Positions 928 through 13,133 of a stretch of 13,133 bases of DNA are shown piece after piece. Under the pieces are notes generated by a model. It ran no database searches. It was not told the DNA's origin and worked only from the letters and a program-made list of their open reading frames with translations. The stretch lies in the IMG/VR virus record IMGVR_UViG_3300045988_162215. One strand, written 5' to 3'. This DNA comes from a virus. Position 1 is the stretch's first letter. Each line of letters starts with the position of its first letter. A program made the position numbers and the translations under genes.

Positions 928-928
928 A

Positions 929-1111: not shown

Positions 1112-1173
1112 AATTATCAACTTCCTTTCCTTATTTTCTATATATATTATATAATAATTTTTATAAAAAATAA

Positions 1174-1444: not shown

Positions 1445-1453
1445 GTTATACAC

Positions 1454-1954: not shown

Positions 1955-1958
1955 AGTA

Positions 1959-2675
1959 TTAGTCCTCCCACCATCCAGAATAGTCAATAATACAAGGTGT
2001 ACCATCTGATACTCGATATCCAATATTTTCATTATGTAAATCCATAGAGATACTTCTAGCAATATCAGAATCGCTCTTTAAAAACTCTAAAAAATTAAAT
2101 GTTTTATCTTCGCCATAAGATTTAATTAAATCTAAAATAAAACGACTTGGGAAAAAACGTTTTCCTTCAAGTTTATTATTATATTTTTCAATATCTTTAG
2201 CAGTTTTTTCTTGAAAATTATAATCACAAGTATCATACTTATTCTCATAAGTTTCACATTTTTCTTGTACATAGTGTAGATTATCAATTTCTTTAGTTTT
2301 AGCTAAGAAAATCTCATATCCGTTTCCTTCATCTATGCACTCTTGGTAAATATCTGCTTCAATCTGACAGAAATTATCTAGGATATCTTCTTTTATATCC
2401 GGTAAATCCGGATCATATGTAAGATCATCACCATTATTTGCGTTATAATAAAAAGTTGTATTGAAAGGAATCTTAATTACAACATCAAGGTCAGGATCAA
2501 TAATTACTGCTTTTGAAACCCCATGATTAACAATAGCTTCCTTATTGATGTCATGCACTTCATTTGTAAAATCATAAAGTTCATTTGAATCTTCTCCATC
2601 TTCACAGTAATATCCAAACTCGTTTGGGACATGAATAGTCTTATAGATATTAAGTCTTTCTTCTTTTGATAACAT
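1959..2675 (-). CDS. protein-kinase-like (APH/choline-kinase-like) protein, 238 aa: VVIK lysine motif, Brenner-like DLHNEN, and CIIDYSG (DFG-equivalent)
   Basis: Lys motif to catalytic D is about 145 aa and D to D about 19 aa, as in aminoglycoside phosphotransferases. RBS GAAAGGAA upstream. Product call from motifs only. Confidence 0.7.
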   Translation of the reverse strand: MLSKEERLNIYKTIHVPNEFGYYCEDGEDSNELYDFTNEVHDINKEAIVNHGVSKAVIIDPDLDVVIKIPFNTTFYYNANNGDDLTYDPDLPDIKEDILDNFCQIEADIYQECIDEGNGYEIFLAKTKEIDNLHYVQEKCETYENKYDTCDYNFQEKTAKDIEKYNNKLEGKRFFPSRFILDLIKSYGEDKTFNFLEFLKSDSDIARSISMDLHNENIGYRVSDGTPCIIDYSGWWED

Positions 2676-2739
2676 GCAACATCAATTCCTTTCTTTTTTC
2701 ATTTTCTATAATTATTATAACAAAAAATTATAAAAAAAT

Positions 2740-2767
2740 AAAGCATAGCAAATAAAAGCTATGCTTT
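2740..2767 (-). terminator. intrinsic terminator (AAAGCATAGC/GCTATGCTTT, loop AAATAAA) followed by U-run on minus strand
   Basis: 10-bp perfect stem, then TTATTTTTTTATAA on the minus strand. Lies between the operon ending at 2855 and the promoter of 1959..2675. Confidence 0.65.
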
Positions 2768-2854
2768 AATAATTTTAATATCAGTGTTAATAAGAATAGT
2801 GAAGATATAACAAATCAAAAATAAAATACAATCTACTTTATCTTAAACTATTCA

Positions 2855-3052
2855 TCAGTAAACACCTCTCATTTCTCTTTTATTTATTTTTTCTAACTTC
2901 TGTGCGCGGTTGTCGGTTCTGCGAGGACGAGATCCAGGCTTAGGGTTATACTTGTTGCAGGTCTTACAGGCTTTATTAAATGTGCCTTCTCTACCTTTAA
3001 GACACTTACCCTCATATTCATAATATCTACATACTCTTTCCCTATCCTTCAT
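2855..3052 (-). CDS. small basic Cys-rich protein (65 aa; CRYYEYEGKC...CKTC, putative zinc-binding)
   Basis: RBS GGAGGAG 7 nt before ATG 3052. Four Cys in CxxxxxxxC...CxxC arrangement. Confidence 0.6.
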   Translation of the reverse strand: MKDRERVCRYYEYEGKCLKGREGTFNKACKTCNKYNPKPGSRPRRTDNRAQKLEKINKREMRGVY

Positions 3053-3056
3053 AAAT

Positions 3057-3251
3057 TTACTCCTCCTTTACATAGATAGTGATTTTACCATCTTCAAGCA
3101 TACAAGCTTCAAAATCATCATTGTCGAGTTTAAAATTAACAAGCCAATATGGAGTATCCCATACCCTACCTTCAAAAAGAATTTCATCATCTTCTTTTAT
3201 AACAACTTCTTCTTCAAAGTAGAAATTTTTAATAAATTTTCCAAGCTTCAT
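3057..3251 (-). CDS. hypothetical acidic protein (64 aa)
   Basis: RBS GAGAGGA 6 nt upstream of ATG 3251..3249. Tightly packed in the operon. Confidence 0.6.
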   Translation of the reverse strand: MKLGKFIKNFYFEEEVVIKEDDEILFEGRVWDTPYWLVNFKLDNDDFEACMLEDGKITIYVKEE

Positions 3252-3254
3252 AGA

Positions 3255-3416
3255 CTATCCTCTCTTATAGATTCGCATCATGTCATACTCTTCTCCAACT
3301 GCTTTAGGCTCCTGCCACTGAGCGCCGCACTTAATACACTTTACTGTATAGTGCTTATCCTTTGGATCACATGCAATAACACGATATTCTTTATGTTTAC
3401 ACTTAAATATTCTCAT
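3255..3416 (-). CDS. small zinc-ribbon-like protein (53 aa; MRIFKCKHKEYRVIACD...VKCIKCGAQW), not in ORF track
   Basis: ATG 3416..3414 preceded by GAAAGGAG at 9 nt. Frame open to TAG at 3257..3255. It fills the gap between promoter 3449-3477 and gene 3057..3251, whose RBS lies in its last codons. Confidence 0.55.
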   Translation of the reverse strand: MRIFKCKHKEYRVIACDPKDKHYTVKCIKCGAQWQEPKAVGEEYDMMRIYKRG

Positions 3417-3448
3417 TTTGATGTTCTCCTTTCATATTTTCTATAATT

Positions 3449-3477
3449 ATTATATCAAAAAAATTATAAAAAAACAA
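3449..3477 (-). promoter_or_regulatory. promoter (extended -10 TGaTATAAT, weak -35 TTGTTT, 17-bp spacer) for the 3416->2855 operon
   Basis: Member of the repeated intergenic cassette TTTTTTTATAATTTTTTTGATATAATAATTATAGAAAATGAAAGGAG seen at 232-285, 1132-1170, 2691-2740, 3425-3475 and 5866-5921. Confidence 0.5.
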
Positions 3478-3500
3478 CAGGTGATATTTATTCACCTGTT
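3476..3500 (-). terminator. intrinsic terminator (AACAGGTGA/TCACCTGTT, loop TATTTAT) followed by UUUUUUU on minus strand
   Basis: Hairpin carries the stop codon of 3488..3838 in its loop. T-run follows on the minus strand. Confidence 0.65.
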
Positions 3501-3838
3501 GCGCTTATATAGTTCTTTGTTTTTTGATAATCTTCTTCTGAAATTGTTTTTAAGACATTTCCTTCTTGTGATATTATATGATTATCTTGTAGATAATTTG
3601 CTTCTATTGTGTTTGCATTAACCGCGGTTACCGTCACTTTGGCACTATTACAGCCAACTATAATGATGCCAACAACCGAGGCTGCCGCGAGTATGCCTAA
3701 AATTAACCGAATAACATTAAAAGAACTATATTCAATTAAACTAAAAATAAAAGCAATTACAAAAGCAAAGGCAAATATGATAAGTAAAAGTATAGATGGA
3801 TGTATATAGGTTATTTGCGTGGTATATAAAACTTCCAT
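3488..3838 (-). CDS. membrane protein (116 aa, two TM helices)
   Basis: Start ATG overlaps the upstream stop as TAATG (translational coupling). Hydrophobic N-terminal half. Confidence 0.65.
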   Translation of the reverse strand: MEVLYTTQITYIHPSILLLIIFAFAFVIAFIFSLIEYSSFNVIRLILGILAAASVVGIIIVGCNSAKVTVTAVNANTIEANYLQDNHIISQEGNVLKTISEEDYQKTKNYISATGE

Positions 3839-4563
3839 TACTGATATTTCTCCTTTAATAAATCTGTTTCATTAAGTTGATATAATGCAGTCAACTCATC
3901 TATCTCTCTTGTTATATCAACGGCAGACTCATCTGCTTGAATCTGTTTTAACATTTTGATACTTTTAGATACTGACTTTAATTGAATTTGTTTTTCAAGT
4001 TTCTTCTTGGTCTTAGAGAGTAAATCAAGTATCTGCTTTGTTTGATCATCTGGATTGGGTATATTTGACAATTCACAGATACTTTTTCTAATCTTTTCCA
4101 ATTTTCTCTCTAGTTTATTCGTATTAAGCTCTATAAAAACCATAATTAAATAGAACACAATAATTATTAAATAGCCGATATTTCTCACGTAATTACCAAA
4201 ATTCCATTGTGATTTTGCAAATTTAGTAAAATCATCATGTGTTTTAATATTAGCATCATATTTTTCATTATATTTTTCTACTAAATCGTTATATTTCTCA
4301 ATAGCATATCCAGCTGAATAATCTTTATCTGTAAAATTATCGCTTTTTAAATAAACAACTGCTGATGCACTCCAAAGAAGACAGTTTGTAAGAAAAATAG
4401 TAATAAGAATTGCTATAATTACATAATTAGCAGTATCGTCTATTTTTTTAAGCATTTTGTTTATAAGCTTAATTTTATTTTTACCTAAGACACATATTAT
4501 TATTATAGATAAAGAAAAAAACATAGCAATAGAACAAAAGCCATGTAAAGCATATATCGTCAT
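3838..4563 (-). CDS. membrane protein with 3-4 TM helices and C-terminal coiled-coil/charged tail (241 aa)
   Basis: RBS AAGGTGAG 5 nt before ATG 4563..4561 (the track start was a GTG inside the RBS). Function unknown. Confidence 0.7.
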   Translation of the reverse strand: MTIYALHGFCSIAMFFSLSIIIICVLGKNKIKLINKMLKKIDDTANYVIIAILITIFLTNCLLWSASAVVYLKSDNFTDKDYSAGYAIEKYNDLVEKYNEKYDANIKTHDDFTKFAKSQWNFGNYVRNIGYLIIIVFYLIMVFIELNTNKLERKLEKIRKSICELSNIPNPDDQTKQILDLLSKTKKKLEKQIQLKSVSKSIKMLKQIQADESAVDITREIDELTALYQLNETDLLKEKYQ

Positions 4564-4581
4564 ATAGCTCACCTTCTTTTC

Positions 4582-4728
4582 TTACATAAAATAACTTTTC
4601 ATATATATAGTTGTTTTTGTATTACCATTTTTATCTGGCAAGGTTTCCCACCAAAAACAATAGGAAGTAACTTTGCCCTTGCCGCGGTTTTGCTTTGTGA
4701 ACTTTACAGCTAGATCATCCATATTCAT
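4582..4728 (-). CDS. small basic protein (48 aa, MNMDDLAVKFTKQNRGKGK...), start embedded in 3' end of upstream gene; not in ORF track
   Basis: Perfect RBS AAGGAGGA 5 nt before ATG 4728..4726, in the +1 frame of gene 4715..4915. Its stop at 4582 sits just before the RBS of 3838..4563. Fills an otherwise empty 140-nt gap. Confidence 0.4.
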   Translation of the reverse strand: MNMDDLAVKFTKQNRGKGKVTSYCFWWETLPDKNGNTKTTIYMKSYFM

Positions 4729-4915
4729 TGAATTCCTCCTTAATAATTCTATCTAGCTCTTCTCGTGGAATAATAATTAAGTTTTCCTTATCTAAATATT
4801 GACTTTTAAGAATGGTTGCTAAATCCTTTGCGCCCATGTGATAAATAATATCTTCCTCTGATGGTTCGTATTCATCAAATTGATAGCCTGTATCATCCAT
4901 TAAACCTTCTCGCAT
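4715..4915 (-). CDS. hypothetical acidic protein (66 aa)
   Basis: RBS AGAGAGGAGGA 5 nt before ATG 4915..4913. Confidence 0.6.
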   Translation of the reverse strand: MREGLMDDTGYQFDEYEPSEEDIIYHMGAKDLATILKSQYLDKENLIIIPREELDRIIKEEFNEYG

Positions 4916-5087
4916 ATGGATCCTCCTCTCTTGTTATCCGTGACAACGGATGCACATAATCTGGTTCTCTTGTTTCTATATTTATGCAATTATATGGTGT
5001 CGCGTCATCCCAGTACATAGGTATCTTTATAAAGGGGACGCCGCCACAAATAAAAAAGTCTGCAAGCCGCAAATCACGAAAAACCAT
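4893..5087 (-). CDS. hypothetical protein (64 aa)
   Basis: RBS AAGGAGAT 5 nt upstream of ATG 5087. The 3' end overlaps the next gene start by 23 nt. Confidence 0.6.
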   Translation of the reverse strand: MVFRDLRLADFFICGGVPFIKIPMYWDDATPYNCINIETREPDYVHPLSRITREEDPYARRFNG

Positions 5088-5101
5088 AAAATATCTCCTT
5101 C

Positions 5102-5356
5102 TTATTTTTCATATGGTGACATATCTCTTCTAGTTACAGTCATTTCTGCATCCAAGAAGTAAATTTGATTATCCGATAAAAAACGAGCTAATTGTCCATT
5201 TTTAAGATTAACTGCATTAACTTGAATGGAGCAATCTTCTGGATAGTTTGCGGTTTCAATTTTCATATAACAATTATTGTTATATTCAAATAAATCTCCT
5301 ATATTAACAGATTTGAAAGGGTATGTTTGATTAGTTGGTATTTTTATTTTAAGCAT
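5102..5356 (-). CDS. paralog 3 of a tandem small-protein family (84 aa; ...GDLFEY...NAVNLKNGQ...)
   Basis: RBS AAAAGGAG before ATG 5356..5354 (the track start was an upstream TTG). Shares sequence pattern with 5374..5604 and 5637..5858. Confidence 0.65.
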   Translation of the reverse strand: MLKIKIPTNQTYPFKSVNIGDLFEYNNNCYMKIETANYPEDCSIQVNAVNLKNGQLARFLSDNQIYFLDAEMTVTRRDMSPYEK

Positions 5357-5373
5357 ATTATTACTCCTTTTAA

Positions 5374-5604
5374 TTAACAAATTCCAAATCCTGATGATGT
5401 CGTTAGAGTTAACTCATCTACTGGAATAACTCTGTTATTAGCGCGGAAAGCATAAAATTCTCCATTTTGTAAATTAACTGCATTTATTTTATGTCCTTCA
5501 ACCTTTATAAAAGCAATGTCATCTTCGCCATATAGGAAGATTTCTCCTACCTTTAGTTGGCTAAAAAGACATTTCTTATCTGAAAGAAGCTTTCTTATTT
5601 TCAT
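5374..5604 (-). CDS. paralog 2 of tandem small-protein family (76 aa; ...VGEIFLY...INAVNLQNGE...)
   Basis: RBS AGGAGGGA 4 nt before ATG 5604..5602. The track start was in-frame upstream, so real start is M11. Confidence 0.65.
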   Translation of the reverse strand: MKIRKLLSDKKCLFSQLKVGEIFLYGEDDIAFIKVEGHKINAVNLQNGEFYAFRANNRVIPVDELTLTTSSGFGIC

Positions 5605-5636
5605 TATATCCCTCCTAGCATTTAATGGATACATTC

Positions 5637-5858
5637 TTATCTTGAAATAGACAATGTTGCTTTTACTGGAAATACTACTGTATCAGAGCTAACTTCAGCT
5701 AGCATATTCTTAGTTAAATCTACAGCATTTTTACAACTATTATTACCACCCACTTTTAAGAAAACGGAATCATCAGCATTGCTACTTAACATAAAACACT
5801 CTCCAATTTCAAGTTTTTTAAATCTAATACCTGTTAGAAGATTTTTTTCAATTATCAT
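5637..5858 (-). CDS. paralog 1 of tandem small-protein family (73 aa; ...IGECFML...KNAVDLTKNM...)
   Basis: RBS AAAGAAGG 7 nt before ATG 5858. First gene of the long leftward operon. Confidence 0.65.
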   Translation of the reverse strand: MIIEKNLLTGIRFKKLEIGECFMLSSNADDSVFLKVGGNNSCKNAVDLTKNMLAEVSSDTVVFPVKATLSISR

Positions 5859-5892: not shown

Positions 5893-5921
5893 ATTATATC
5901 AAAAATATTAAAGTTTTTCAA
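5893..5921 (-). promoter_or_regulatory. leftward promoter (-35 TTGAAA, 17-bp spacer, extended -10 TGaTATAAT) for operon 5858->3488
   Basis: Read on the minus strand: TTGAAAaactttaatatttttgaTATAAT. Back-to-back with the rightward promoter. Confidence 0.6.
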
Positions 5922-5947
5922 ATTGGTATTGCTATGGCGGCCGCAAC

Positions 5948-5976
5948 TTGACAAACAAAAATAAGTTTGTTATAAT
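5948..5976 (+). promoter_or_regulatory. rightward consensus promoter TTGACA-17-TATAAT for plus-strand cluster
   Basis: TTGACA 5948-5953, spacer aacaaaaataagtttgt, TATAAT 5971-5976. About 95-nt leader to ATG 6076 with RBS GGAGGGAG. Confidence 0.7.
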
Positions 5977-6075: not shown

Positions 6076-6360
6076 ATGGATTATTTTAATAGAAATAATG
6101 ATGAAGAGATGGGTGGGATCAGCTATTGTAGCTGTGATTTGAACCCAACTGGTATTACTGCTAATCGAATTAAGTTTGGCGATGTGACAATGGATATAGG
6201 TGATTTAAGAGTAGATAAATATGATAAAATAATAAAAGAACTGTCTGATAAAGTTGAAGTAATTATGAAACATTGTTCTTTTAAACAAGAGAAGAAAATA
6301 AGTGAGTGGCGGGAGTTTGACTTAGAGGCTGCTACAGGGAGAGAGTTTGAGACACGATGA
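6076..6360 (+). CDS. hypothetical protein (94 aa)
   Basis: RBS GGAGGGAG 5 nt before ATG. Stop overlaps the next start (ATGA). Confidence 0.65.
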   Translation: MDYFNRNNDEEMGGISYCSCDLNPTGITANRIKFGDVTMDIGDLRVDKYDKIIKELSDKVEVIMKHCSFKQEKKISEWREFDLEAATGREFETR

Positions 6361-6560
6361 GTTGGGTTATTATTTTGATTTATATAGCGATAGCTATTGT
6401 TAGTTTATATTTTGGATTTCGCGCGGGAGTTGAATTGATTGTTGCGGCGATCCGCAAGAATCCAAATAAAATGTTGGCGGCAATGGGAATAAGAGTAGTA
6501 AGGAGAGTTGAACATGAGGATACCACAAAGCGTGGCTCGCGCGATAGTAAGAATACATGA
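6357..6560 (+). CDS. small protein with N-terminal TM helix and basic C-terminus (67 aa)
   Basis: ATGA overlap with the upstream gene. Weak RBS (GGGAGAGAG about 11 nt upstream). Confidence 0.5.
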   Translation: MSWVIILIYIAIAIVSLYFGFRAGVELIVAAIRKNPNKMLAAMGIRVVRRVEHEDTTKRGSRDSKNT

Positions 6561-6602
6561 TTTCATTGTTTATAGAATTTGGACAAAATTCTAAACTATG
6601 TG

Positions 6603-6617
6603 TTGGGCAAAAGCCAA
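6603..6617 (+). terminator. weak hairpin TTGGGC-aaaa-GCCAA followed by TAATTTGTTTG
   Basis: Short imperfect stem after the stop of 6357..6560. May attenuate before the internal promoter-like TTTGTA-17-TATAAT at 6625-6653. Confidence 0.25.
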
Positions 6618-6669
6618 TAATTTGTTTGTAATTGTTTACAAATATAGTATAATGAGAGAAAGGAGGATT

Positions 6670-6840
6670 ATGGAATTGAATCTTCAAGAAACATGTCAGC
6701 GATTGAGGCTGAGTGAGTCGACTCTACGAGAGGCGTTTCCGCGCACTGTTAGAACTTTAGAAAAACAAGGTATTAAATTAACTAAAGTTGGCAGAGGGCA
6801 GAATGCAGATTATACTATTGAATATGTAAACAAGGAGTGA
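6670..6840 (+). CDS. putative helix-turn-helix DNA-binding protein (56 aa; MELNLQETCQRLRLSESTLREAF...)
   Basis: RBS GAAAGGAGGA just upstream of ATG 6670 (short spacing). The track ORF started further upstream without an RBS. HTH-like segment QRLRLSESTLRE. Confidence 0.5.
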   Translation: MELNLQETCQRLRLSESTLREAFPRTVRTLEKQGIKLTKVGRGQNADYTIEYVNKE

Positions 6841-6845
6841 TTTAA

Positions 6846-7028
6846 GTGCCAATAAGAACCAAATATAAAACCATTTATTCTTTAAGAGTAAGGATGCTTT
6901 TAAGGGATATGGGTTTTGAGCCTCTATTAGAAAAAGATAATATATATAGATCTGGATTGAAGTGCTGGATATATGAAGTTACAGATAATTTTAATAAAGC
7001 TCTTGATAAAATATTAGGGGGTAATTAA
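6846..7028 (+). CDS. hypothetical protein (60 aa), GTG start
   Basis: RBS AAGGAG 8 nt before GTG 6846. Stop 1 nt before the next RBS/ATG. Confidence 0.5.
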   Translation: MPIRTKYKTIYSLRVRMLLRDMGFEPLLEKDNIYRSGLKCWIYEVTDNFNKALDKILGGN

Positions 7029-7029
7029 A

Positions 7030-7317
7030 ATGAAAGCTGTAACCACAGATAGACCAGTTAAGTATGAGCCGGGAGAATTTTTTCAAATTTCAAATAAAGG
7101 TTTGAAGGCAGCAGCTAGTCTTAATAATAATGGATTATTATTGTGGTTATATTTGTGTAAATTTAAGAGTGGTACTAAGTGGAAGATAAGCCCGCAGGCT
7201 ATCAGTAATGAACTGGGGATAACTTTAGATAAAGCTAAGAAGGTTTCAACTATTGGATACCAAGAATTAGTTGCAGCAAATTTTATTAGAGATGATGTGT
7301 TCTACGCGGACGGTTAA
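7030..7317 (+). CDS. winged-helix DNA-binding protein resembling RepA_N / phage replisome-organizer N-terminal domain (95 aa)
   Basis: Motif GLLLWLYLCKF...WKISPQAISNELGITLDKAKKVSTIGYQELVAANFI resembles the initiator winged helix of Firmicute plasmids and phages. RBS GGGGGT. Lies directly upstream of the iteron array. Confidence 0.6.
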   Translation: MKAVTTDRPVKYEPGEFFQISNKGLKAAASLNNNGLLLWLYLCKFKSGTKWKISPQAISNELGITLDKAKKVSTIGYQELVAANFIRDDVFYADG

Positions 7318-7320
7318 ATA

Positions 7321-7480
7321 AAAGTGCTAAAATGGCACTTTTTAGATACAAGGAGTCTATTAAAAAGTGCTTAATCGGCACTTTTATATACAAGGAAAAG
7401 TGCTTAATAAGCACTTTTTAATGAGCAGAAAGTGCTTAATTGGCACTTTTTTCTAAGGAAAAGTGCTTAATCGGCACTCT
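7321..7480. repeat. array of five 21-bp palindromic iterons AAAGTGCTTAAT(N)GGCACTTT at 7321, 7364, 7397, 7429, 7460 (spacing 43, 33, 32, 31 bp)
   Basis: Seen directly. Copy 3 (7397-7417) is a perfect palindrome AAAGTGCTTA-A-TAAGCACTTT; the others differ at 1-3 positions. Spacing is about three helical turns. Confidence 0.85.
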
Positions 7481-7520
7481 AATATATAAATAGAGAATAA
7501 ATACTAAATAAATAAATAGA
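7481..7520. other. 40-bp AT tract (4 G/C in 40) immediately after iterons; candidate DNA-unwinding element
   Basis: aatatataaatagagaataaatactaaataaataaataga. Confidence 0.5.
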
Positions 7521-7521
7521 C

Positions 7522-7578
7522 GGTATAAATAATCTTTACGTAGTTCGCTTCGCTCACTACTCCAAGATTATTTATACC
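7522..7578 (+). repeat. hairpin A: 15-bp stem GGTATAAATAATCTT/AAGATTATTTATACC, internal loop, 4-bp inner stem GTAG/CTAC, 13-nt loop TTCGCTTCGCTCA
   Basis: Perfect inverted repeat seen directly. Confidence 0.8.
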
Positions 7579-7625
7579 TTTAGGCGCGGCGTAGTGATGT
7601 AATGTTACAAAGGGGCCGGCGTAAA

Positions 7626-7680
7626 GAGATTAAAACCTTGGAATAATGAGCGAAGCGAATTATGGAATGGTTTTAATCTC
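7626..7680 (-). repeat. hairpin B: 12-bp stem GAGATTAAAACC/GGTTTTAATCTC, internal loop, 4-bp inner stem ATAA/TTAT, 13-nt loop TGAGCGAAGCGAA (exact reverse complement of loop A)
   Basis: Same architecture as hairpin A with a different stem sequence. The loop is identical when read on the opposite strand. Confidence 0.8.
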
Positions 7681-8045
7681 GTCCCTATATTTAATAGTGT
7701 ACTACTTTTTTAACATTTTTCTTAGAGTTGATTGCTCAATTGAGTTGGAGCAAAGGAGAAAAAGGATGGATATAAATATATTGAAGAGGGGTATGATAAT
7801 ATGGATTTTATAAATACTTGTGTAAGACCTAAGTCATATAATATTTATATATTAGATATTGATGATGTGGCGGATAGTATTATGAATCCGCGGCGGTTTT
7901 AAGGGCTAGGTTAAAAGGGGTGCAGGGCAATGCCGCGCATACAGACATTAGTTTTAAAAAATGATCTGAATTTGGGTTAGAAGCCCAAGCCTCCCTTTTA
8001 TCTTACGTTACTTTGCTATTGTTATTAAAGAGAGGAGAAATAGTT

Positions 8046-8294
8046 ATGTTTAATACGGAGATTGTTGCTAAGGATATTGATGGTATAAAGACGCAGTTGA
8101 GGAAGGCATATGATGGCGATGTGCCGGCGGGTTTAGCTGTTTTTTATTGGTTAAAGAATAATGGTATAGGGATTAGAGATAGGAATGGTGAGGTTGTTAG
8201 GGATGAAGATTTGTATAGTTTTTGTATAAATTATGGCGCGAGTGTTGATAGGGCTATTGTTGCGGCGAAGGGTGAAGGCGCATATGGCGTTTAG
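8046..8294 (+). CDS. hypothetical protein (82 aa)
   Basis: RBS AGAGAGGAGAAA 6 nt before ATG 8046. The track ORF began at an upstream in-frame TTG. Confidence 0.6.
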   Translation: MFNTEIVAKDIDGIKTQLRKAYDGDVPAGLAVFYWLKNNGIGIRDRNGEVVRDEDLYSFCINYGASVDRAIVAAKGEGAYGV

Positions 8295-8639: not shown

Positions 8640-9008
8640 CTAAAAGAACTTGAAAAGATTGAACAACTCCGCCATAGGATCTGACTCTGACTTCTTCTTT
8701 ACCTTAGGCTTAGGCTTACTCTCCGCTGTATCCATTGCCTGAATAAAAAGCTCGATAAACTTCAACTTATCAGTCATGTCCTTTGTAATCTCATTTGCGT
8801 CTTTCTCTGAAATTTCAGCTCCAGTAATAGCTTCCACATAATCCAACAAATCAGCAATCAGATATTTTCTTGCATCTTCTACCTCTGTAGGATCAATCTT
8901 TCTCTTATCCTTGGCTGCGGCAACCGCATCGGCTTCCGCCTGCGCCATCTTGCTAATCTCTTCAACTGACTTTCCTTCTGCAATAAGTTCTGCTATTGTT
9001 TTACTCAT
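8640..9008 (-). CDS. acidic protein with basic/hydrophobic C-terminal tail (122 aa)
   Basis: RBS AGAAGAGG upstream of ATG 9008. Its own promoter is at 9048-9076. Confidence 0.7.
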   Translation of the reverse strand: MSKTIAELIAEGKSVEEISKMAQAEADAVAAAKDKRKIDPTEVEDARKYLIADLLDYVEAITGAEISEKDANEITKDMTDKLKFIELFIQAMDTAESKPKPKVKKKSESDPMAELFNLFKFF

Positions 9009-9047
9009 AGTCTATAACCTCTTCTTTCTATTTCATTTTCTATATAT

Positions 9048-9076
9048 ATTATATAATAATTTTTCAGAAGTGTCAA
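9048..9076 (-). promoter_or_regulatory. consensus promoter TTGACA-17-TATAAT (minus strand)
   Basis: Reverse complement of tgtcaa 9071-9076 and attata 9048-9053, spacer 17. Confidence 0.65.
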
Positions 9077-9205
9077 AGGCACGAAAGCATATACCAGTAG
9101 TAAAATTGTAATTAGCTGTAACTATATCTTTTCTATTGTTGCGGGTATTTGTTCGTTTTTATATGAGAATAAGAAAAAACGAAGCTAATTTACCTCCCCT
9201 ATATA

Positions 9206-9234
9206 ATTATATCAAAAATACGAAAAAATGTCAA
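9206..9234 (-). promoter_or_regulatory. orphan promoter TTGACA-17-TATAAT followed by SD GGGGAGGT with no start codon or ORF downstream
   Basis: Minus strand reads TTGACAttttttcgtatttttgaTATAATtatataGGGGAGGTaaattagcttcg. The nearest in-frame start is a non-canonical ATT giving an 18-aa ORF. Confidence 0.5.
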
Positions 9235-9369
9235 GAAAGATGCGCTGAGGCATTTATCAATAGAATCACTGTAATTCGATACAGTAAGCCATTTTTTATT
9301 CTGACGGATATTTTTACGTTTCAGATAGAAAACGAGCAAATTTACAACAAAAGTAAGTCAAACATCTAA

Positions 9370-9469
9370 TTTCGGGATCCGTATGGCGGTTTTCAGATTT
9401 CAAACAACCAGGAAAAAAAGCCATATAGGGTCTGGTCGTGGGAACTCGGCGTTGCCCGGTGGTCAACGC
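9370..9469 (-). ncRNA. candidate small RNA transcribed leftward from promoter 9476-9504; begins with GC hairpin GGCGTTG/CAACGCC
   Basis: Consensus promoter with no ORF of at least 40 aa and an RBS downstream over 460 nt. The transcript 5' end folds into the 9448-9470 hairpin. The 3' end is undefined. Confidence 0.25.
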
Positions 9470-9475
9470 CGCGAC

Positions 9476-9504
9476 ATTATACCACATTTTATGTGCTTTG
9501 TCAA
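9476..9504 (-). promoter_or_regulatory. consensus promoter TTGACA-17-TATAAT (minus strand) driving an ORF-less transcript
   Basis: tgtcaa 9499-9504 and attata 9476-9481 on the plus strand. Confidence 0.6.
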
Positions 9505-9547
9505 GTAAAAAAATAAAAAAATAGAGGAAAATTCCTCATTTTTTAAG
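9505..9547 (-). terminator. intrinsic terminator: 10-11-bp stem GGAAAATTCCT/AGGAATTTTCC, then UAUUUUUUUAUUUUUUU
   Basis: Inverted repeat 9516-9526 / 9537-9547 downstream of the stop of 9568..9960. Long T-run on the minus strand. Confidence 0.6.
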
Positions 9548-9567
9548 GAATTTTCCCCTAAAAACCT

Positions 9568-9960
9568 TTATTTCTTAGGTTTTCTCTGTTCAATTAAATC
9601 GATTTTGAACTTGCGACCATTGATTTCTAAAGAAATCAGCTTATTTTCCTTAATAATCTCAACCTTTTCGCCATAAATACTTTGCAAATTAGTTAAAATA
9701 TTATGGAAAACTTCTTTTTTTTCATCAGAAATCTTAACTGTCCTAGGCTTTGAATCCTTGCGTTTTTCCTGGGTAATACCATGATCAACTCTCTGTCCTT
9801 TGGTTTTCTCTTCCAACTCGACAACCTCTTCCATTGTAAACCCTTCGGGACACTCTTCCAACTCTTCACAGGGTTTATCCCACATTTCATGGCAAAGCAT
9901 TTTACCATTCTTACAAATAAGATTTCCGCAATCTTCACACAACTTGATATTCATATTCAC
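9568..9960 (-). CDS. protein with N-terminal Cys-rich zinc-ribbon (CEDCGNLICKNGKMLCHEMWDKPC) and charged C-terminal region (130 aa)
   Basis: RBS GAAAGGGG upstream of ATG 9960. Promoter at 9986-10014. Confidence 0.7.
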   Translation of the reverse strand: MNMNIKLCEDCGNLICKNGKMLCHEMWDKPCEELEECPEGFTMEEVVELEEKTKGQRVDHGITQEKRKDSKPRTVKISDEKKEVFHNILTNLQSIYGEKVEIIKENKLISLEINGRKFKIDLIEQRKPKK

Positions 9961-9985
9961 AACCCCTTTCTTTTACTGTACCTAT

Positions 9986-10014
9986 ATTATAACACAAGAG
10001 GTTGAGAATGTCAA
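9986..10014 (-). promoter_or_regulatory. consensus promoter TTGACA-17-TATAAT (minus strand)
   Basis: tgtcaa 10009-10014 and attata 9986-9991, spacer 17. Confidence 0.65.
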
Positions 10015-10024
10015 CCTTTAATTT

Positions 10025-10056
10025 GCGGTTTTCGGTGGGAGAATCCCACCGACCGC
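10025..10056. other. GC-rich hairpin GCGG-tttt-TCGGTGGGA-gaa-TCCCACCGA-CCGC between two minus-strand genes
   Basis: 9-bp perfect stem plus outer GCGG/CCGC. A T-run follows only on the plus strand (CACATTGTTTTT). It carries the 3' flank motif CGC-CACATT shared with the other GC hairpins. Confidence 0.4.
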
Positions 10057-10068
10057 ACATTGTTTTTA

Positions 10069-10467
10069 CTAGCCCGCGATATCCTCAGTATTAAGGGCGA
10101 AGGTCATCTTCTTACCATCTGGAATACGGCGAACCTTGTAAACCATAGATGGAAGTCTGTTTTCTTCCTTTGCTGGACCGGCAAGCTGTGTCATAAGTGC
10201 GACAATCTTGTTAAGCGAATACTCGCCATTAAAGGCATTCATAATCTCTGTACAAGTCATAGGCTTTGAATCCTCGAGCAAGTCAAGAATCATATTCTTG
10301 ATTTCTGCGTTCTCGGTCTGATTCTTAGACGGCTTACGGTTTGCATTCTTCTTGTTAAGAATAGCAATCTCCTTACGGCAAAAGTCCTTGATATCCTCGG
10401 ATACGCCATCAATAGCCATAATCATCTCAAAATACTGCTTCTTTGTTGTCTTGTTTGTTGTTGTCAT
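10069..10467 (-). CDS. Lys/Thr-rich N-term plus C-terminal winged-helix-like domain (132 aa); fed by four tandem promoters
   Basis: RBS AAAAGGGGT upstream of ATG 10467. Segment CTEIMNAF...KIVALMTQL...VYKVRR resembles wHTH. Product unknown. Confidence 0.7.
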   Translation of the reverse strand: MTTTNKTTKKQYFEMIMAIDGVSEDIKDFCRKEIAILNKKNANRKPSKNQTENAEIKNMILDLLEDSKPMTCTEIMNAFNGEYSLNKIVALMTQLAGPAKEENRLPSMVYKVRRIPDGKKMTFALNTEDIAG

Positions 10468-10516
10468 AAAACATACCCCTTTTCTTAATAAATTCTTAAC
10501 TCTTTGTTACATATAC

Positions 10517-10545
10517 ATTATAACATATTTTGTAAGGTTTGTCAA
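10517..10545 (-). promoter_or_regulatory. promoter Pm1 TTGACA-17-TATAAT immediately upstream of gene 10069..10467
   Basis: tgtcaa 10540-10545, attata 10517-10522. Confidence 0.65.
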
Positions 10546-10608
10546 GCATTTTTTTTATTATTTTCTTTTCGGTTTAGAACCTTTAATCTTCCTTGACCTT
10601 ACATACTT

Positions 10609-10637
10609 ATTATAACATATTTTTTAATGTTTGTCAA
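10609..10637 (-). promoter_or_regulatory. promoter Pm2 TTGACA-17-TATAAT (part of 175-bp tandem duplication)
   Basis: tgtcaa 10632-10637, attata 10609-10614. About 50 bp identical to the Pm3 copy. Confidence 0.6.
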
Positions 10638-10783
10638 TAGGTTTTTTAAGATTTTTAAGAAATAACAATGATTTTAGGCGGATATGGAATAAGGCTCAAC
10701 CAAAATTGCCAACTCATTATCCCTTTTATTATTGGTTTTTTATTTCCTTTATCATTGTTTTCTTAACTTTATCTTACATACTT

Positions 10784-10812
10784 ATTATAACATATTTTTT
10801 AATGTTTGTCAA
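10784..10812 (-). promoter_or_regulatory. promoter Pm3, exact duplicate of Pm2
   Basis: cttacatacttattataacatattttttaatgtttgtcaataggttttt occurs at 10598-10646 and again at 10773-10821. Confidence 0.6.
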
Positions 10813-10893
10813 TAGGTTTTTGAAAGTTTCTAAAATTTGTTTTCCTCACGACCGAGGTTGCTATTTTGTTTTCTTTCCTTACCTTGTAAATAC

Positions 10894-10922
10894 ATTATAA
10901 CAAAATATTTATAGAAAATCAA
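10894..10922 (-). promoter_or_regulatory. weaker promoter Pm4 (TTGATT-17-TATAAT)
   Basis: attata 10894-10899. The -35 is rc of aatcaa at 10917-10922. Confidence 0.35.
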
Positions 10923-10927
10923 TATCG

Positions 10928-10980
10928 GAAAATTGCACAAAATTCGGGATGTACAAGGTTAAAAAATTTGTGCAATTTTC
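10928..10980. repeat. inverted repeat GAAAATTGCACAAA ...25 nt... TTTGTGCAATTTTC
   Basis: 14-bp perfect arms at 10928-10941 and 10967-10980. Abuts the -35 of the plus-strand promoter at 10984. Confidence 0.7.
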
Positions 10981-10983
10981 CTA

Positions 10984-11013
10984 TTGACAAATGCCAGAGC
11001 TATGTGGTATAAT
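10984..11013 (+). promoter_or_regulatory. plus-strand promoter TTGACA-18-TATAAT firing rightward into GC hairpin 11019-11041
   Basis: TTGACA 10984-10989, TATAAT 11008-11013. Confidence 0.55.
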
Positions 11014-11046
11014 AGTTCGGCGTGCAAGGGGCGTGCACGCCGCGCC

Positions 11047-11075
11047 ATTATAACACATAATGAATTATTTGTCAA
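11047..11075 (-). promoter_or_regulatory. minus-strand promoter TTGACA-17-TATAAT; its transcript begins with hairpin 11019-11041 and runs through IR 10928-10980
   Basis: tgtcaa 11070-11075, attata 11047-11052. Confidence 0.55.
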
Positions 11076-11092
11076 CCCCTAAATTAAAAAAA

Positions 11093-11119
11093 TGTGGGCG
11101 AGTTTAGGCTCGCCGCACA
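11093..11119. terminator. bidirectional intrinsic terminator (TGTGGGCGAG/CTCGCCGCACA) flanked by AAAAAAA upstream and TTTTCGATTTCC downstream
   Basis: A-run 11085-11092 gives a U-run for the minus-strand gene 11133..11360. The T-rich 11120-11131 serves the plus-strand sRNA candidate. Confidence 0.65.
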
Positions 11120-11132
11120 TTTTCGATTTCCA

Positions 11133-11360
11133 CTAATCTTCAATGATTAACTTCGCTTTAAGTTTACGAATAGGTCTTTCTGAAAAATCACAAATAACTC
11201 CTTCTATAGCTCCGCTGTCAAGGTCAACAATATATGTATCATAATTATCAGCACATAACATACAAGGTTTATTATCATCTAAAAATGTAAAAACTTCACC
11301 ATTATCTAAATCTTCGCAACTTAAATATCCCTTAACTTCAATCTTTCCAATAATTTCCAT
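11133..11360 (-). CDS. hypothetical acidic Cys-containing protein (75 aa)
   Basis: RBS AAAGGTGA 5 nt before ATG 11360..11358 (the track start was an upstream GTG). Promoter at 11404-11432. Confidence 0.6.
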   Translation of the reverse strand: MEIIGKIEVKGYLSCEDLDNGEVFTFLDDNKPCMLCADNYDTYIVDLDSGAIEGVICDFSERPIRKLKAKLIIED

Positions 11361-11403
11361 TTTAATCACCTTTTTAACCTTTCTTTCTCTTGTTTATATA
11401 CTT

Positions 11404-11432
11404 ATTATACTATATTTATTATTATTTGTCAA
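11404..11432 (-). promoter_or_regulatory. consensus promoter TTGACA-17-TATAAT
   Basis: tgtcaa 11427-11432, attata 11404-11409. Confidence 0.65.
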
Positions 11433-11446
11433 GTATTTTTAGAAAA

Positions 11447-11466
11447 ATAGGCATTTCTGCCTATTC
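11447..11466 (-). terminator. terminator hairpin AATAGGCA-tttc-TGCCTATT, then UUUUCU on minus strand
   Basis: Overlaps the stop of 11461..11751. Directly upstream of the next promoter. Confidence 0.5.
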
Positions 11467-11751
11467 TTCAGAGATATTTGCGAAGGGCATCTTCGGACAA
11501 GGATAATCGTCAACCACTGATGAGCCACCATAAGTGGTTCGTACCATTGACACTCTCCACGCCACATCCGCAAGTCTATCAATACAACTTGGATAACTAC
11601 TCGTACACCAAATTTCTCCATTCTTACGAAAAATATCCTGATATGTGCCTTTAATTGTAGTTAAAAGACTAATCACATCTTCGATTTTCTGTTCCTCTTC
11701 TGGTGTCAAAGTAATTGTTTCAATACGTTTCTCGCCTGTAATAATTTCCAT
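11461..11751 (-). CDS. hypothetical protein (96 aa)
   Basis: RBS AGAGAGGT 7 nt before ATG 11751. Promoter at 11783-11811. Confidence 0.65.
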   Translation of the reverse strand: MEIITGEKRIETITLTPEEEQKIEDVISLLTTIKGTYQDIFRKNGEIWCTSSYPSCIDRLADVAWRVSMVRTTYGGSSVVDDYPCPKMPFANISEE

Positions 11752-11782
11752 ATAATTTACCTCTCTTTCACTTTCTATAATT

Positions 11783-11811
11783 ATTATATCATTATTATTT
11801 TAATTTGTCAA
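11783..11811 (-). promoter_or_regulatory. consensus promoter TTGACA-17-TATAAT (lies inside the 3' end of gene 11795..11998)
   Basis: tgtcaa 11806-11811, attata 11783-11788. Confidence 0.6.
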
Positions 11812-11998
11812 CATTTAATTCATAAATATTGTAATAAATTTTTGTTATCCAAGTATTTCTTATTATTCGCCAACATTTCCAAATAGGTCTTTGCCAACTT
11901 TTAAGATTAAAGCCTAAAATAAACAATGCCTTAAAATTTTTCCATGATTTTTCTTTAAGCCAATTATCTATTACTAAATACTGTGTTTTTGTTATCAT
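11795..11998 (-). CDS. Trp-rich basic small protein (67 aa)
   Basis: RBS AGAGAGGT 7 nt before ATG 11998. Promoter at 12024-12052. The 3' end overlaps the downstream promoter. Confidence 0.5.
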   Translation of the reverse strand: MITKTQYLVIDNWLKEKSWKNFKALFILGFNLKSWQRPIWKCWRIIRNTWITKIYYNIYELNVDKLK

Positions 11999-12023
11999 TC
12001 TTATTACCTCTCTTTCTACAATT

Positions 12024-12052
12024 ATTATATCACAGCTGGCTTACTTTGTCAA
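12024..12052 (-). promoter_or_regulatory. consensus promoter TTGACA-17-TATAAT
   Basis: tgtcaa 12047-12052, attata 12024-12029. Confidence 0.6.
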
Positions 12053-12205
12053 GCACTTTTTTATTGCGTATTCAACTGGCGAAACTGGATAAACACAAAC
12101 AACTAATTCTTGAAGCAATTGTGACGCTTGTTTTTTATTTCTAATAGCCTTTTTACTTTTTATATATTGAAAACCATTAGCAGTTTTTATTTTATAATAT
12201 TTCAT
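12041..12205 (-). CDS. small basic protein (54 aa, MKYYKIKTANGFQYIKSKKAIRNKKQ...), not in ORF track
   Basis: RBS AGTGAGGT 9 nt before ATG 12205..12203. Its own TTGACA-17-TATAAT promoter is at 12233-12261. The stop overlaps the downstream -35. Confidence 0.45.
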   Translation of the reverse strand: MKYYKIKTANGFQYIKSKKAIRNKKQASQLLQELVVCVYPVSPVEYAIKKCLTK

Positions 12206-12232
12206 TTCTTATCAACCTCACTTTCTATACCT

Positions 12233-12261
12233 ATTATACCACCGCTGACCTACTCTGTCAA
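12233..12261 (-). promoter_or_regulatory. consensus promoter TTGACA-17-TATAAT
   Basis: tgtcaa 12256-12261, attata 12233-12238. Confidence 0.6.
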
Positions 12262-12708
12262 AAGTAAATCAGCTAAAAAATCAATAATATTTTCTGCGGT
12301 CGGATCGACTGTTTCTCCCAAACTCCAACCCTTGCGAACCTTTGCGTTATCATCAAAAAGAATCTGATTTCCGCCATGCTTGCGTGTGCAGTTTGCTTTT
12401 GTTGTGCCATACTTCACAAGATGGATTTCATCAAAAGGGAAATCATATCGAGCAAGCCAATCTCTTTTTGCAGTTCTCACAACCTCGTCGAAGTCTTTTG
12501 TGGAATCTTTAGACAACCAAGATGTGACAACGATTCTATAACCGACACTCTTCAAACAACAGAGAAGAGAACCAAGCAAAGCCATATCCCAAAGTGGCTC
12601 AGCCATAATGTAAGGGCGCGGGTTCTCGTTGTGTAAATCCTCAAGCCAGCCCTCTACTCCATAGAAATTTGCGATTGTTCCATCCATGTCAAATACTAAT
12701 GTTTTCAT
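12250..12708 (-). CDS. HAD-superfamily 5'(3')-deoxyribonucleotidase (NT5C-like), 152 aa
   Basis: N-terminal motif I FDMDGT (DxDGT), motif II VVTSW, motif IV ILFDDN. Size and layout typical of phage NT5C-type nucleotidases. RBS AAGAGGT 7 nt before ATG 12708. Confidence 0.8.
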   Translation of the reverse strand: MKTLVFDMDGTIANFYGVEGWLEDLHNENPRPYIMAEPLWDMALLGSLLCCLKSVGYRIVVTSWLSKDSTKDFDEVVRTAKRDWLARYDFPFDEIHLVKYGTTKANCTRKHGGNQILFDDNAKVRKGWSLGETVDPTAENIIDFLADLLLTE

Positions 12709-12738
12709 ATTTTTTACCTCTTTCCTTATCTTTTCTTT

Positions 12739-12767
12739 ATTATAGCATGTTATTTGTTATTTGTCAA
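12739..12767 (-). promoter_or_regulatory. consensus promoter TTGACA-17-TATAAT
   Basis: tgtcaa 12762-12767, attata 12739-12744. Confidence 0.6.
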
Positions 12768-12774
12768 CTACTTT

Positions 12775-12909
12775 TTACCAGATAGTAATAGATTGTTTAG
12801 AATCATCATACTCCACAGCAGGCTCGCAAAAGTTGCCTTCGCTTTCTATATAGACTTCTGTATCTGATGGATATTCTTGTAATATTTCAATTAAATCTTC
12901 AACTGTCAT
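12775..12909 (-). CDS. small acidic protein (44 aa, MTVEDLIEILQEYPSDTEVYIESEGNFCEPAVEYDDSKQSITIW), not in ORF track
   Basis: RBS AGAGAGGT 7 nt before ATG 12909..12907. Promoter at 12945-12973. Confidence 0.45.
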   Translation of the reverse strand: MTVEDLIEILQEYPSDTEVYIESEGNFCEPAVEYDDSKQSITIW

Positions 12910-12944
12910 ATTTTTTACCTCTCTTTCCTTTACCTTATATACAC

Positions 12945-12973
12945 ATTATACATGATAGATTTTAATTTGTCAA
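12945..12973 (-). promoter_or_regulatory. consensus promoter TTGACA-17-TATAAT
   Basis: tgtcaa 12968-12973, attata 12945-12950. Confidence 0.6.
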
Positions 12974-13017
12974 GCATTTTGGGATAAAAAAATAAAAAAA
13001 TTTTTTCAAAAAAACTC

Positions 13018-13046
13018 TTGACAAAAAGCCGGGACTATGATATACT
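13018..13046 (+). promoter_or_regulatory. plus-strand promoter TTGACA-17-TATACT firing into GC hairpin 13054-13080
   Basis: Homologous in position and sequence to the 10984-11013 promoter (shared ...TATAmTrGAAGTTCGGCG). Confidence 0.5.
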
Positions 13047-13053
13047 GGAAGTT

Positions 13054-13080
13054 CGGCGCGCTGCGATCCATGGCGCGCCG
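13054..13080. repeat. GC hairpin CGGCGCGC-tgcgatccatg-GCGCGCCG (homolog of hairpin 11019-11041 with a different stem sequence)
   Basis: 8-bp perfect stem. Flanked by TTCGGCG on the 5' side and CGCCAATTATAACAC on the 3' side, as at 11019-11041. Confidence 0.75.
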
Positions 13081-13083
13081 CCA

Positions 13084-13112
13084 ATTATAACACAAAAATC
13101 AATTTTTGTCAA
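13084..13112 (-). promoter_or_regulatory. minus-strand promoter TTGACA-17-TATAAT convergent with 13018-13046
   Basis: tgtcaa 13107-13112, attata 13084-13089. Its transcript starts in the GC hairpin. Confidence 0.55.
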
Positions 13113-13133
13113 GCACTTTTTTCAAAAAAAAAT

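Follow-up and report, generated by a model that had tools for sequence, protein, structure and literature searches.

Stacked host-type promoters and an operator-like repeat in the predicted control region of a winged-helix gene from an uncultivated phage

The record IMGVR_UViG_3300045988_162215 of the virus database IMG/VR comprises 13,133 nucleotides (nt) of DNA, to which we refer as the window. On its minus strand, the gene of a predicted winged-helix protein of 132 amino acids (aa; 10069..10467) is preceded by a gap of 665 nt (10468-11132) that is free of credible open reading frames (ORFs), and we consider it rather probable that this gap serves to control a conserved early regulatory cassette, which is probably autoregulated. 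Five promoters in the gap share the minus strand with the gene. P1 (10517..10545; TTGACA-17-(TG)TATAAT) has an A-tract upstream and its -10 element ends 50 nt from the ATG, P2 (10609..10637) is a perfect TTGACA-17-(TG)TATAAT 92 nt upstream of P1, and P3 (10784..10812), equally perfect, is a copy of the P2 core. P4 (10894..10922; TTGATT-17-(TG)TATAAT) combines a weak -35 with an extended -10 element, and P5 (11047..11075; perfect, with a 17-nt spacer) directly follows the terminator of the upstream gene. A sixth promoter, Pas (10984..11013, plus strand; perfect TTGACA-18-(TG)TATAAT), is antisense and faces P5. Measured against the sigma-70/sigma-A consensus (TTGACA and TATAAT, 17 ± 1 nt apart), P1, P2, P3 and P5 match at 12/12 positions with a spacer of 17 nt, Pas at 12/12 with a spacer of 18 nt and P4 at 10/12. 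The TG extension of the -10 element is present in 6/6 promoters, and A-tracts lie just upstream of the -35 elements of P1, P2 and P3. An extended -10 element and an A-rich upstream element are auxiliary promoter elements typical of Firmicutes. P1 to P5 and Pas are predicted host-type housekeeping (sigma-70/sigma-A) promoters. TTGACA-N17-TATAAT occurs 16 times without mismatch in the window compared to a mean of 0.00 in 200 dinucleotide-preserving shuffles, and the perfect sites are therefore not due to chance.

The sense promoters form a tandem cluster, i.e. two or more co-directional host-type promoters that feed one unit with no gene or terminator between them; a terminator scan found no terminator-like site between these promoters and the 132-aa gene. 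With 25-26%, the guanine plus cytosine (GC) content across 10400-11000 is lower than elsewhere in the right half of the window. The original prediction, made from the sequence of the window, had listed P1 to P4 with exactly these coordinates, and all four do aim at the ATG of 10467..10069; P5, Pas, a GC-rich hairpin and an inverted repeat in the same gap were missing from it. It had also described the region as free of ORFs, and we agree for the 665 nt of the gap. Minus-strand ORFs within 10468-11132 are 20-38 aa long and were rejected as genes because most of them start at the TTG of a -35 hexamer. Two plus-strand ORFs of 87 and 89 aa were rejected on account of their TTG start and low complexity, and the longer one crosses a lineage-specific insertion. 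The further claim that the stack feeds one gene at the head of one transcription unit stands in part. The stack is real and aims at the 132-aa gene, but it probably serves two genes, as the next intrinsic terminator on the minus strand (9560-9522) lies beyond the gene at 9960..9568. Neither is its position special, with 15 perfect minus-strand promoters in 9048-13112, about one per small gene.

Relatives of this locus were found in metagenomes. Megablast of 9000-13133 against 50,697 phage records gave no match, tblastn with the 132-aa protein returned only one unannotated faecal phage scaffold, and no relative was present among GTDB genomes. Metagenomic contigs of 122-145 kb encode proteins that are 83-98% identical to the 132-aa protein, and more distant homologues are encoded by the loci L007 (58%), L008 (40%) and MT835855 (37%). 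The only link to cultured phages is another ORF with ~30% identity to the Bacillus phages SP-10 and SBSphiC (both ~144 kb). The source of the window is probably a large (~144 kb) uncultivated phage with a Firmicutes-type host; in a related contig, the 132-aa gene lies at ~126 kb of 144.7 kb.

Where enough upstream DNA is available, the relatives all have the same distances between the end of the -10 element and the ATG, namely 50 nt for P1, 141 nt for P2, 251 nt for P4, 370 nt for Pas and 404 nt for P5. P1 and P2 are conserved in all relatives, P1 being invariant down to 40% protein identity. P4 is kept as TTGATT, TTGAAA or TTGCAA with a TG-extended -10 element, 9-10 nt from the inverted repeat, in L001, L007, L008, L041, L051, L065 and L142. 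At L008, P1, P2, P4 and Pas are kept and P5 is missing; P5 occurs in the close relatives and in L188 and is also absent from some paralogous modules. P4, P2 and P1 are ancestral, and their spacing of ~90-110 nt corresponds approximately to the footprint of one RNA polymerase with some margin. After removal of an insertion that contains P3, the non-coding DNA of the window is 97% identical to L001, 95-99% identical to L010 and 72-87% identical to L007, whereas the coding sequence for the 132-aa protein is 85.7%, 85.7% and 65% identical, respectively. The DNA of the gap is hence more conserved than the gene that it drives. Five sense promoters with their A-tracts, Pas, the hairpin and the inverted repeat fill almost the whole gap, which therefore explains the constraint without hidden genes.

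The N-terminal part of the 132-aa protein is predicted to form three helices, which a basic linker (KKNANRKPSKNQ) connects to a winged helix at the C-terminus. In an AlphaFold2 model with a predicted local distance difference test (pLDDT) score of 84.5, helices span residues 48-65, 72-78 and 85-96 and strands residues 112-117 and 120-125, i.e. a three-helix bundle with a beta-hairpin wing. Foldseek aligned the last ~70 residues with SmtB, CzrA, MarR, MecI, BlaI and Z-alpha structures at a probability of up to ~1.0 and weak E-values of 0.05-0.4, none being ≤0.001. The guess of a winged-helix product in the original prediction is thus borne out by the model and by weak structural matches. No Pfam family scored above threshold for this protein or ten divergent homologues, whose sub-threshold matches were MarR_2, HTH_20, Penicillinase_R, TrmB and Rpc34; a sequence search of the PDB returned nothing, and the protein could not be placed in a curated winged helix-turn-helix family such as MarR, ArsR or BlaI. 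A search with a profile of the family yielded at least 1,493 clusters on contigs of up to 196 kb, a few of which are labelled as HxlR- or ArsR-type regulators by the Joint Genome Institute (JGI). The predicted winged-helix family is large, unnamed and without a cultured member, and paralogues occur within one genome. Immediately downstream, the minus-strand gene 9568..9960 encodes a 130-aa protein with a Cys-rich N-terminus (CEDCGNLICKNGKMLCHEMWDKPCEELEEC). Besides having a perfect promoter of its own (10014-9986), this gene probably shares a transcript with the 132-aa gene that extends to the terminator at 9560-9522. In all loci examined, whether related or distant, the winged-helix gene has a partner gene of ~118-130 aa behind it, which suggests a conserved two-gene unit.

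Stacked promoters are not confined to the window. We counted promoters with at least 11/12 matches within 450 nt upstream of those homologues that had enough upstream DNA and of other ORFs of at least 110 aa at the same loci. At least two strong promoters precede 16/27 divergent homologues (59%; seven have three) compared to 22/264 other ORFs (8%). Predicted promoter stacking is a trait of the winged-helix family, and its conservation in distant phages fits a need for a fast and high early dose of the protein.

P3 has a history of its own. According to the original prediction, two of the promoters belong to an exact 175-bp tandem duplication. Two promoters in identical cores with starts 175 nt apart were indeed seen; however, only ~49 nt are identical (67 nt at 91%), and the other ~125 nt, located within 10638-10783, are unique. 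The P3 insertion (10638..10812, minus strand; 175 nt) consists of P3 itself and the 146-nt stretch 10638-10783. It is carried only by the window and L011 and is missing from L012, which encodes an identical protein, so that P3 is, as judged from this comparison, a recent lineage-specific insertion of 175 nt. Its unique part had no match in the other loci, IMG/VR or the JGI metagenomes. The inserted stretch folds with a z-score of -2.8. A 16-nt terminal inverted repeat (TTAAGAAAACAATGAT / ATCATTGTTATTTCTTAA) is found in 10638-10783, and a 20-codon ORF with an ATG start and a weak ribosome-binding site (MSWQFWLSLIPYPPKIIVIS; 10717..10655, minus strand) lies inside the insertion. Several assemblies that encode an identical protein (L011, a 143-kb contig, and L013-L016) stop within the promoter repeats or a short distance upstream of them. 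It seems that metagenomic assemblies are broken by the repeated ~49-nt cores, which also yield copy-number variants like P3. Promoter copy numbers in assembled contigs need to be read with caution.

The insertion raises the question of whether the stack as a whole consists of relics of cassette shuffling, i.e. whether recombination between near-identical promoters deleted and inserted ORFs and left orphan promoters without a selected function beyond P1. We consider this unlikely, even if several observations agree with it: the recent insertion of P3 is bounded by identical promoter cores, assemblies break at the promoter repeats, and the genes located between the 132-aa gene and a 152-aa gene further upstream vary among relatives. 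Apart from a mutated Shine-Dalgarno sequence and ATG, the P4 and P2 leaders are similar to the standard leader (AAGGAAAGAGAGGTAAAAAATATG), and L007 retains an ATG and a 50-codon ORF after P4. However, functionless orphan promoters should decay, whereas the perfect or near-perfect hexamers of P4, P2 and P1 and their spacing are kept down to 40% protein identity. The region is also more conserved than the flanking coding sequences, and stacking recurs before homologues in unrelated phages at the frequencies given above.

Between the divergent promoters Pas and P4 lies an inverted repeat (10924..10984) with 21-nt arms (10924-10944 and 10964-10984) that are 90% complementary. Its cores TTGCACAAA (10933-10941) and TTTGTGCAA (10967-10975) are separated by 25 nt (TTGCACAAA-N25-TTTGTGCAA). 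The left arm is located 8 or 18 nt from the -35 element of Pas and the right arm 9-10 nt from that of P4 (10 nt for P4 of the window). A scan of IMG/VR for TTGCACAAA-N12-42-TTTGTGCAA returned at least 120 loci, compared to 39 loci in all for a composition-matched control palindrome. Among the matches listed, gaps of 14 nt (49 cases) and 24 nt (42 cases) predominated, with a few at 32-33 nt, whereas the control palindrome gave a flat distribution. With gap steps of ~10 nt both sites stay on one face of the helix, which is a property of protein-bound DNA and not of an RNA stem. The inverted repeat is a probable regulator binding site, i.e. a candidate operator. Its half-sites occur in variants such as TTGCACAAA, GTGCACAAA and TTGTACAA, and the repeat lies between Pas and P4 in the window and in L001, L007, L008, L041, L045, L051, L065, L070, L134, L142, L188 and L191. 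None of the boxes of CodY, Rex, CtsR, CIRCE, LexA or Spo0A fits the repeat, and a full-text literature search for its sequence returned only primers and unrelated papers. A promoter of the type used by an SPO1 phage sigma factor (GATATT) near P4 was rejected, as it is not conserved in L007.

Repeat and protein family co-occur. The family profile detected winged-helix homologues at 20/120 loci that had been selected by the repeat (21 after iteration) and at 0/39 control loci (Fisher p 0.0023). The repeat is located ~90-400 nt upstream of a homologue in seven unrelated contigs of 30-45% GC (L041, L045, L051, L065, L070, L134 and L142); most of these repeat the elements of the module described below, and L051, L065 and L142 repeat all of them. 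From this co-occurrence we propose that the winged-helix protein may bind the repeat. An operator-like repeat beside the gene points to a phage regulator of transcription or a DNA-binding regulator instead of the host-takeover or anti-defence role that the original prediction had put forward. On such a reading, the product would be a bulk effector, perhaps an abundant protein that coats or protects DNA, and would not regulate the promoters of the phage itself. Models for such a protein are phi29 p6, which coats DNA in abundance, and Ocr of T7, the product of the first gene expressed. We judge this version improbable. The very high and conserved promoter dosage and the presence of paralogues within one genome would agree with it, as would the rapid evolution of the gene (85.7% compared to 91-99% nearby), a typical feature of genes that are engaged in a conflict with the host. 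On the other hand, a winged-helix fold together with a conserved, phased and sequence-specific repeat next to the gene agrees with binding to specific sites, and no similarity of the protein to known anti-defence families was found, the PHROGs matches being of unknown function and PADLOC, which models defence systems and not anti-defence proteins, not having been searched.

The elements of the gap belong to a module of fixed order. It starts with a terminator, an optional sense promoter, a GC hairpin and an antisense promoter (TGTGGTATAAT ... TTGACA) and continues with TTGCACAAA ... TTTGTGCAA, a promoter with a weak -35 element, a small hairpin followed by AAAACAA, an A-tract and at least one strong promoter. 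Out of 38 cassettes in total, two or more strong sense promoters were counted in 28, a strong antisense promoter with a GC hairpin behind it in 16 and the repeat in 15. Among loci chosen by the protein alone, L191 holds a complete cassette, L188 has variant half-sites and L185 is without the repeat. The module recurs several times per 10-20 kb in relatives and partly in the window at ~9476 and ~13084. The predicted cassette recurs across many unrelated phages from gut and wastewater.

Within the window, the perfect minus-strand promoters at 9476-9504, 11047-11075 and 13084-13112 each have a GC hairpin at the predicted start, within the ~35 nt downstream. The three hairpins share the flanks GCGGCG...CGCCGA[A/G][C/T]T and differ in their stems. 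Those near 11019-11041 and 13050-13080 face convergent plus-strand promoters (10984-11013 and 13018-13046, the latter TTGACA-17-TATACT), and the copy of the module at 9476 has lost its antisense promoter. A second ORF-free stack was observed at 9009-9567, where perfect minus-strand promoters (9504-9476, 9234-9206 and 9076-9048) precede the gene 9008..8640. This stretch is 96-99% identical to L001 and L010, the flanking coding sequences being 85-94% identical. The 235-nt transcript from its first promoter has a folding z-score of -2.25, and its second promoter is followed by a strong GGGGAGG for which a suitably spaced ATG, GTG or TTG start is lacking.

Pas is conserved in every relative as well as in distant cassettes. 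It converges with P5 so closely that their -10 elements are only 33 nt apart, and between them lies the GC hairpin (11019..11041; GGCGTGCA-N7-TGCACGCC) at the predicted 5' end of both transcripts. All 17 instances of this hairpin fold into GC-rich stems of ~6-10 bp with more than ten different stem sequences, and it is therefore the hairpin structure that is kept. The conserved flanks of the hairpin are the regions between -10 element and start of the two facing promoters. The predicted Pas RNA would run from ~11019 to a bidirectional terminator near 11125 (~105 nt), with the hairpin at its 5' end, the terminator at its 3' end and a folding z-score of -3.38. The intrinsic terminator of the upstream gene 11369..11133 (11097..11114, minus strand) marks the upstream boundary of the cassette, and its hairpin also closes the predicted Pas RNA. 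On the sense side, the leader of P4 contains a small hairpin (10844..10857, minus strand; CCTC/GAGG followed by AAAACAA), the position of which is occupied by CAGC/GCTG, CAG/CTG or CACTT/AAGTG in paralogous modules. The folding z-score of the predicted leaders is -0.17 for P1, -0.57 for P2, -1.97 for P4 with its small hairpin and -5.25 for P5, whose leader includes a long AU hairpin of 18 bp.

Given these structures, the main products of the region could be non-coding RNAs, namely the P5 leader, the antisense RNA of Pas and the leaders between the promoters, rather than more protein. The original prediction had suggested that transcripts from between the promoters may also act as RNAs, for which we find no support in the P1 and P2 leaders: they are unstructured, and Rfam has no match at E ≤ 1 over 10468-11132. 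ARAGORN detected no transfer RNA or transfer-messenger RNA in the region. The predicted structured RNAs lie in that part of the gap which had not been described, i.e. in the P5 leader and the antisense RNA. The hairpin and terminator at the two ends of the Pas RNA, for which the oop RNA of phage lambda is comparable, the low z-score of the P5 leader and the maintenance of the GC hairpin with many different stems would suit this explanation. Still, no terminator separates any sense promoter from the gene. Moreover, the long AU hairpin is unlikely to be an RNA element, since its arms are untranscribed spacer in modules without P5 and its loop length shifts in steps of ~10 nt, a property of DNA. 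We rate non-coding RNAs as main products slightly below the shuffling relics, and hence also as unlikely.

The repeat also occurs in a different type of phage. In linear IMG/VR contigs of 13-14.5 kb with inverted terminal repeats (L049, L061, L100, L113, L133, L145 and others), TTGCACAAA-N24-26-TTTGTGCAA is located 12-70 nt from the termini, and at both ends where both were assembled. Genes for a type-B DNA polymerase, a phi29-type capsid protein, a connector and gp16 identify L100 as a phi29-like phage, and in this contig an inward-facing promoter comes after the terminal repeat. None of these 13-14.5 kb phi29-like contigs yielded a detectable homologue of the winged-helix family, and the first gene of the phi29-like phage was rejected as a family member after a negative hhalign comparison with the family. 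At L025 (MT835855, the faecal phage scaffold with a distant homologue), 780-1060 holds a dense iteron-like array of AGTTAG / CTAACT between two TTGCACAAA repeats, which may be an origin or a partition site.

In T7 and T4, origins consist of a promoter and an AT-rich unwinding region that together prime replication. The gap could analogously be a replication origin, or else a sink for host RNA polymerase, given its low GC content, its repeated promoters and inverted repeat and the presence of the same repeat at the replication termini of phi29-like phages. However, GC skew does not change its sign at the gap, the module is present several times per 20 kb, there are no iterons besides the promoters, and the layout is tied to one gene family. 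Among all the explanations weighed here, we give this one the least credence and regard it as very improbable.

By sequence, the region belongs to none of the T7, SPO1, phi29 or lambda systems, each of which shares some of its features. The promoters A1, A2 and A3 of T7 are tandem strong promoters for the host polymerase, ~100-125 nt apart, that feed the first early unit. The likeness to A1-A3 drawn in the original prediction is fair as a functional analogy in an early-type region: both have serial host-type promoters with no gene or terminator between them. T7 has one cluster at the genome end that enters first, whereas consensus promoters precede almost all of the small genes here, and the cluster goes with a single gene family and is accompanied by an antisense promoter and an operator-like repeat. 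The phi29 switch consists of the tandem early promoters A2c and A2b and the divergent late promoter A3 with a poor -35 element. Its protein p4 (~125 aa), which is not a winged-helix protein, binds spaced inverted repeats (CTTTTT-N15-AAAATG), represses some promoters and activates the weak one. Tandem promoters beside a divergent one, a poor -35 element, a small protein and inverted repeats with a fixed spacer, the binding of which is proposed here, are common to both. Differences are the predicted winged-helix product, the other site, the co-directional orientation of the weak promoter with the strong ones and the multiple copies of the module. The oop RNA of lambda is a short antisense RNA, and face-to-face promoters are known from the pairs pR/pL of 186, Pe/Pc of P2 and pIN/pOUT of Tn10. 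As in these cases, a strong promoter would give rise to a short antisense RNA back into the end of the upstream unit, and convergent promoters are close enough to interfere; unlike there, no more than 33 nt separate the -10 elements, and one GC hairpin stands at the start of both transcripts. To our knowledge, a module of hairpin, antisense promoter and repeat has not been described for SPO1. SPO1's module for host takeover is a block of ~12 kb with many small early genes that have the promoters and ribosome-binding sites of highly expressed genes (PMC6873191). A large phage, here with a probable Firmicutes-type host, and small early genes with strong promoters are shared features, but no sequence similarity was found.

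Our reading of the gap as the control region of an early regulatory cassette would work as follows. Upon entry of the DNA, host RNA polymerase would load on several promoters at once, resulting in a rapid and high dose of the winged-helix protein and probably also of the 130-aa gene product. The protein would bind to the pair of TTGCACAAA/TTTGTGCAA sites, each with its centre near -49 of Pas and of P4, and binding would shift the balance of the strong antisense promoter Pas and the weak -35 promoter P4, resulting in autoregulation and a switch from early to later expression. It could act also at further copies of the module within the early region, by activation or repression. Pas would yield the ~105-nt RNA with its 5' hairpin and 3' terminator, and this RNA, its transcription or both would insulate the cassette from the upstream unit; alternatively, Pas and the hairpin might serve to produce a stable short antisense RNA.

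Several points speak against such a mechanism. Many of the loci from which binding is proposed may share ancestry and would then not be independent. Among the repeat-bearing loci for which DNA was fetched, only ~17% have a homologue, the phi29-like phages carry the repeat at their termini without a detectable one, and some cassettes, including both in L185, are without the repeat. The binder may thus be a host factor or another protein. As to the promoters, a sequence-specific regulator has no obvious need of four or five consensus promoters, and their outputs need not add up, as a downstream promoter can be occluded by one upstream of it. The P4 and P2 leaders have the appearance of decayed 5' untranslated regions from lost genes, and the stack may have begun as relics.

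A more far-reaching interpretation, which we advance only tentatively, is that the region is one copy of an undescribed and widespread genetic switch of phages. The winged-helix protein would be a master early regulator acting at several modules per genome and Pas the source of an oop-like RNA or an insulator. The order of this switch would be terminator, GC hairpin, strong Pas, helically phased TTGCACAAA pair, promoter with a weak -35 element, two to four consensus promoters, winged-helix gene and ~120-aa partner. If this were true, a regulatory code or a host factor common to unrelated phage groups would follow from the presence of this operator at both ends of phi29-like gut phages. Tandem strong early promoters are textbook phage biology, and the stack alone is unsurprising. 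More useful is the compact conserved cassette that joins the stack with an unnamed winged-helix family, an operator-like repeat with phased sites and two convergent promoters that have a hairpin between them. It offers a testable lead on the control of early transcription in a large phage group without a cultured member, and the region also supplies a set of very strong and compact consensus promoters.

Further features were observed elsewhere in the window. The 152-aa gene upstream (12250-12708, minus strand) encodes a HAD-type protein that is similar to a phage 5'-3' deoxyribonucleotidase (phrog_2643, E 5.6e-08), which makes it one of the few early genes with a functional hint. On the plus strand, a cluster of repeated hairpins based on AAAAGTGCTTAA / TTAAGCACTTTT (7312-7456) is located in the gap 7318-7645 between plus-strand genes; a search of Rfam with this cluster gave only sub-threshold and clearly spurious matches (Yfr11 and microRNA models). 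At 5893-5976, divergent promoters lie back to back, a perfect one on the plus strand (5948-5976) and one with 11/12 matches on the minus strand (5921-5893). They separate the minus-strand genes (319-5858) from the plus-strand genes (6076-8294), and GC skew switches its sign at this position.

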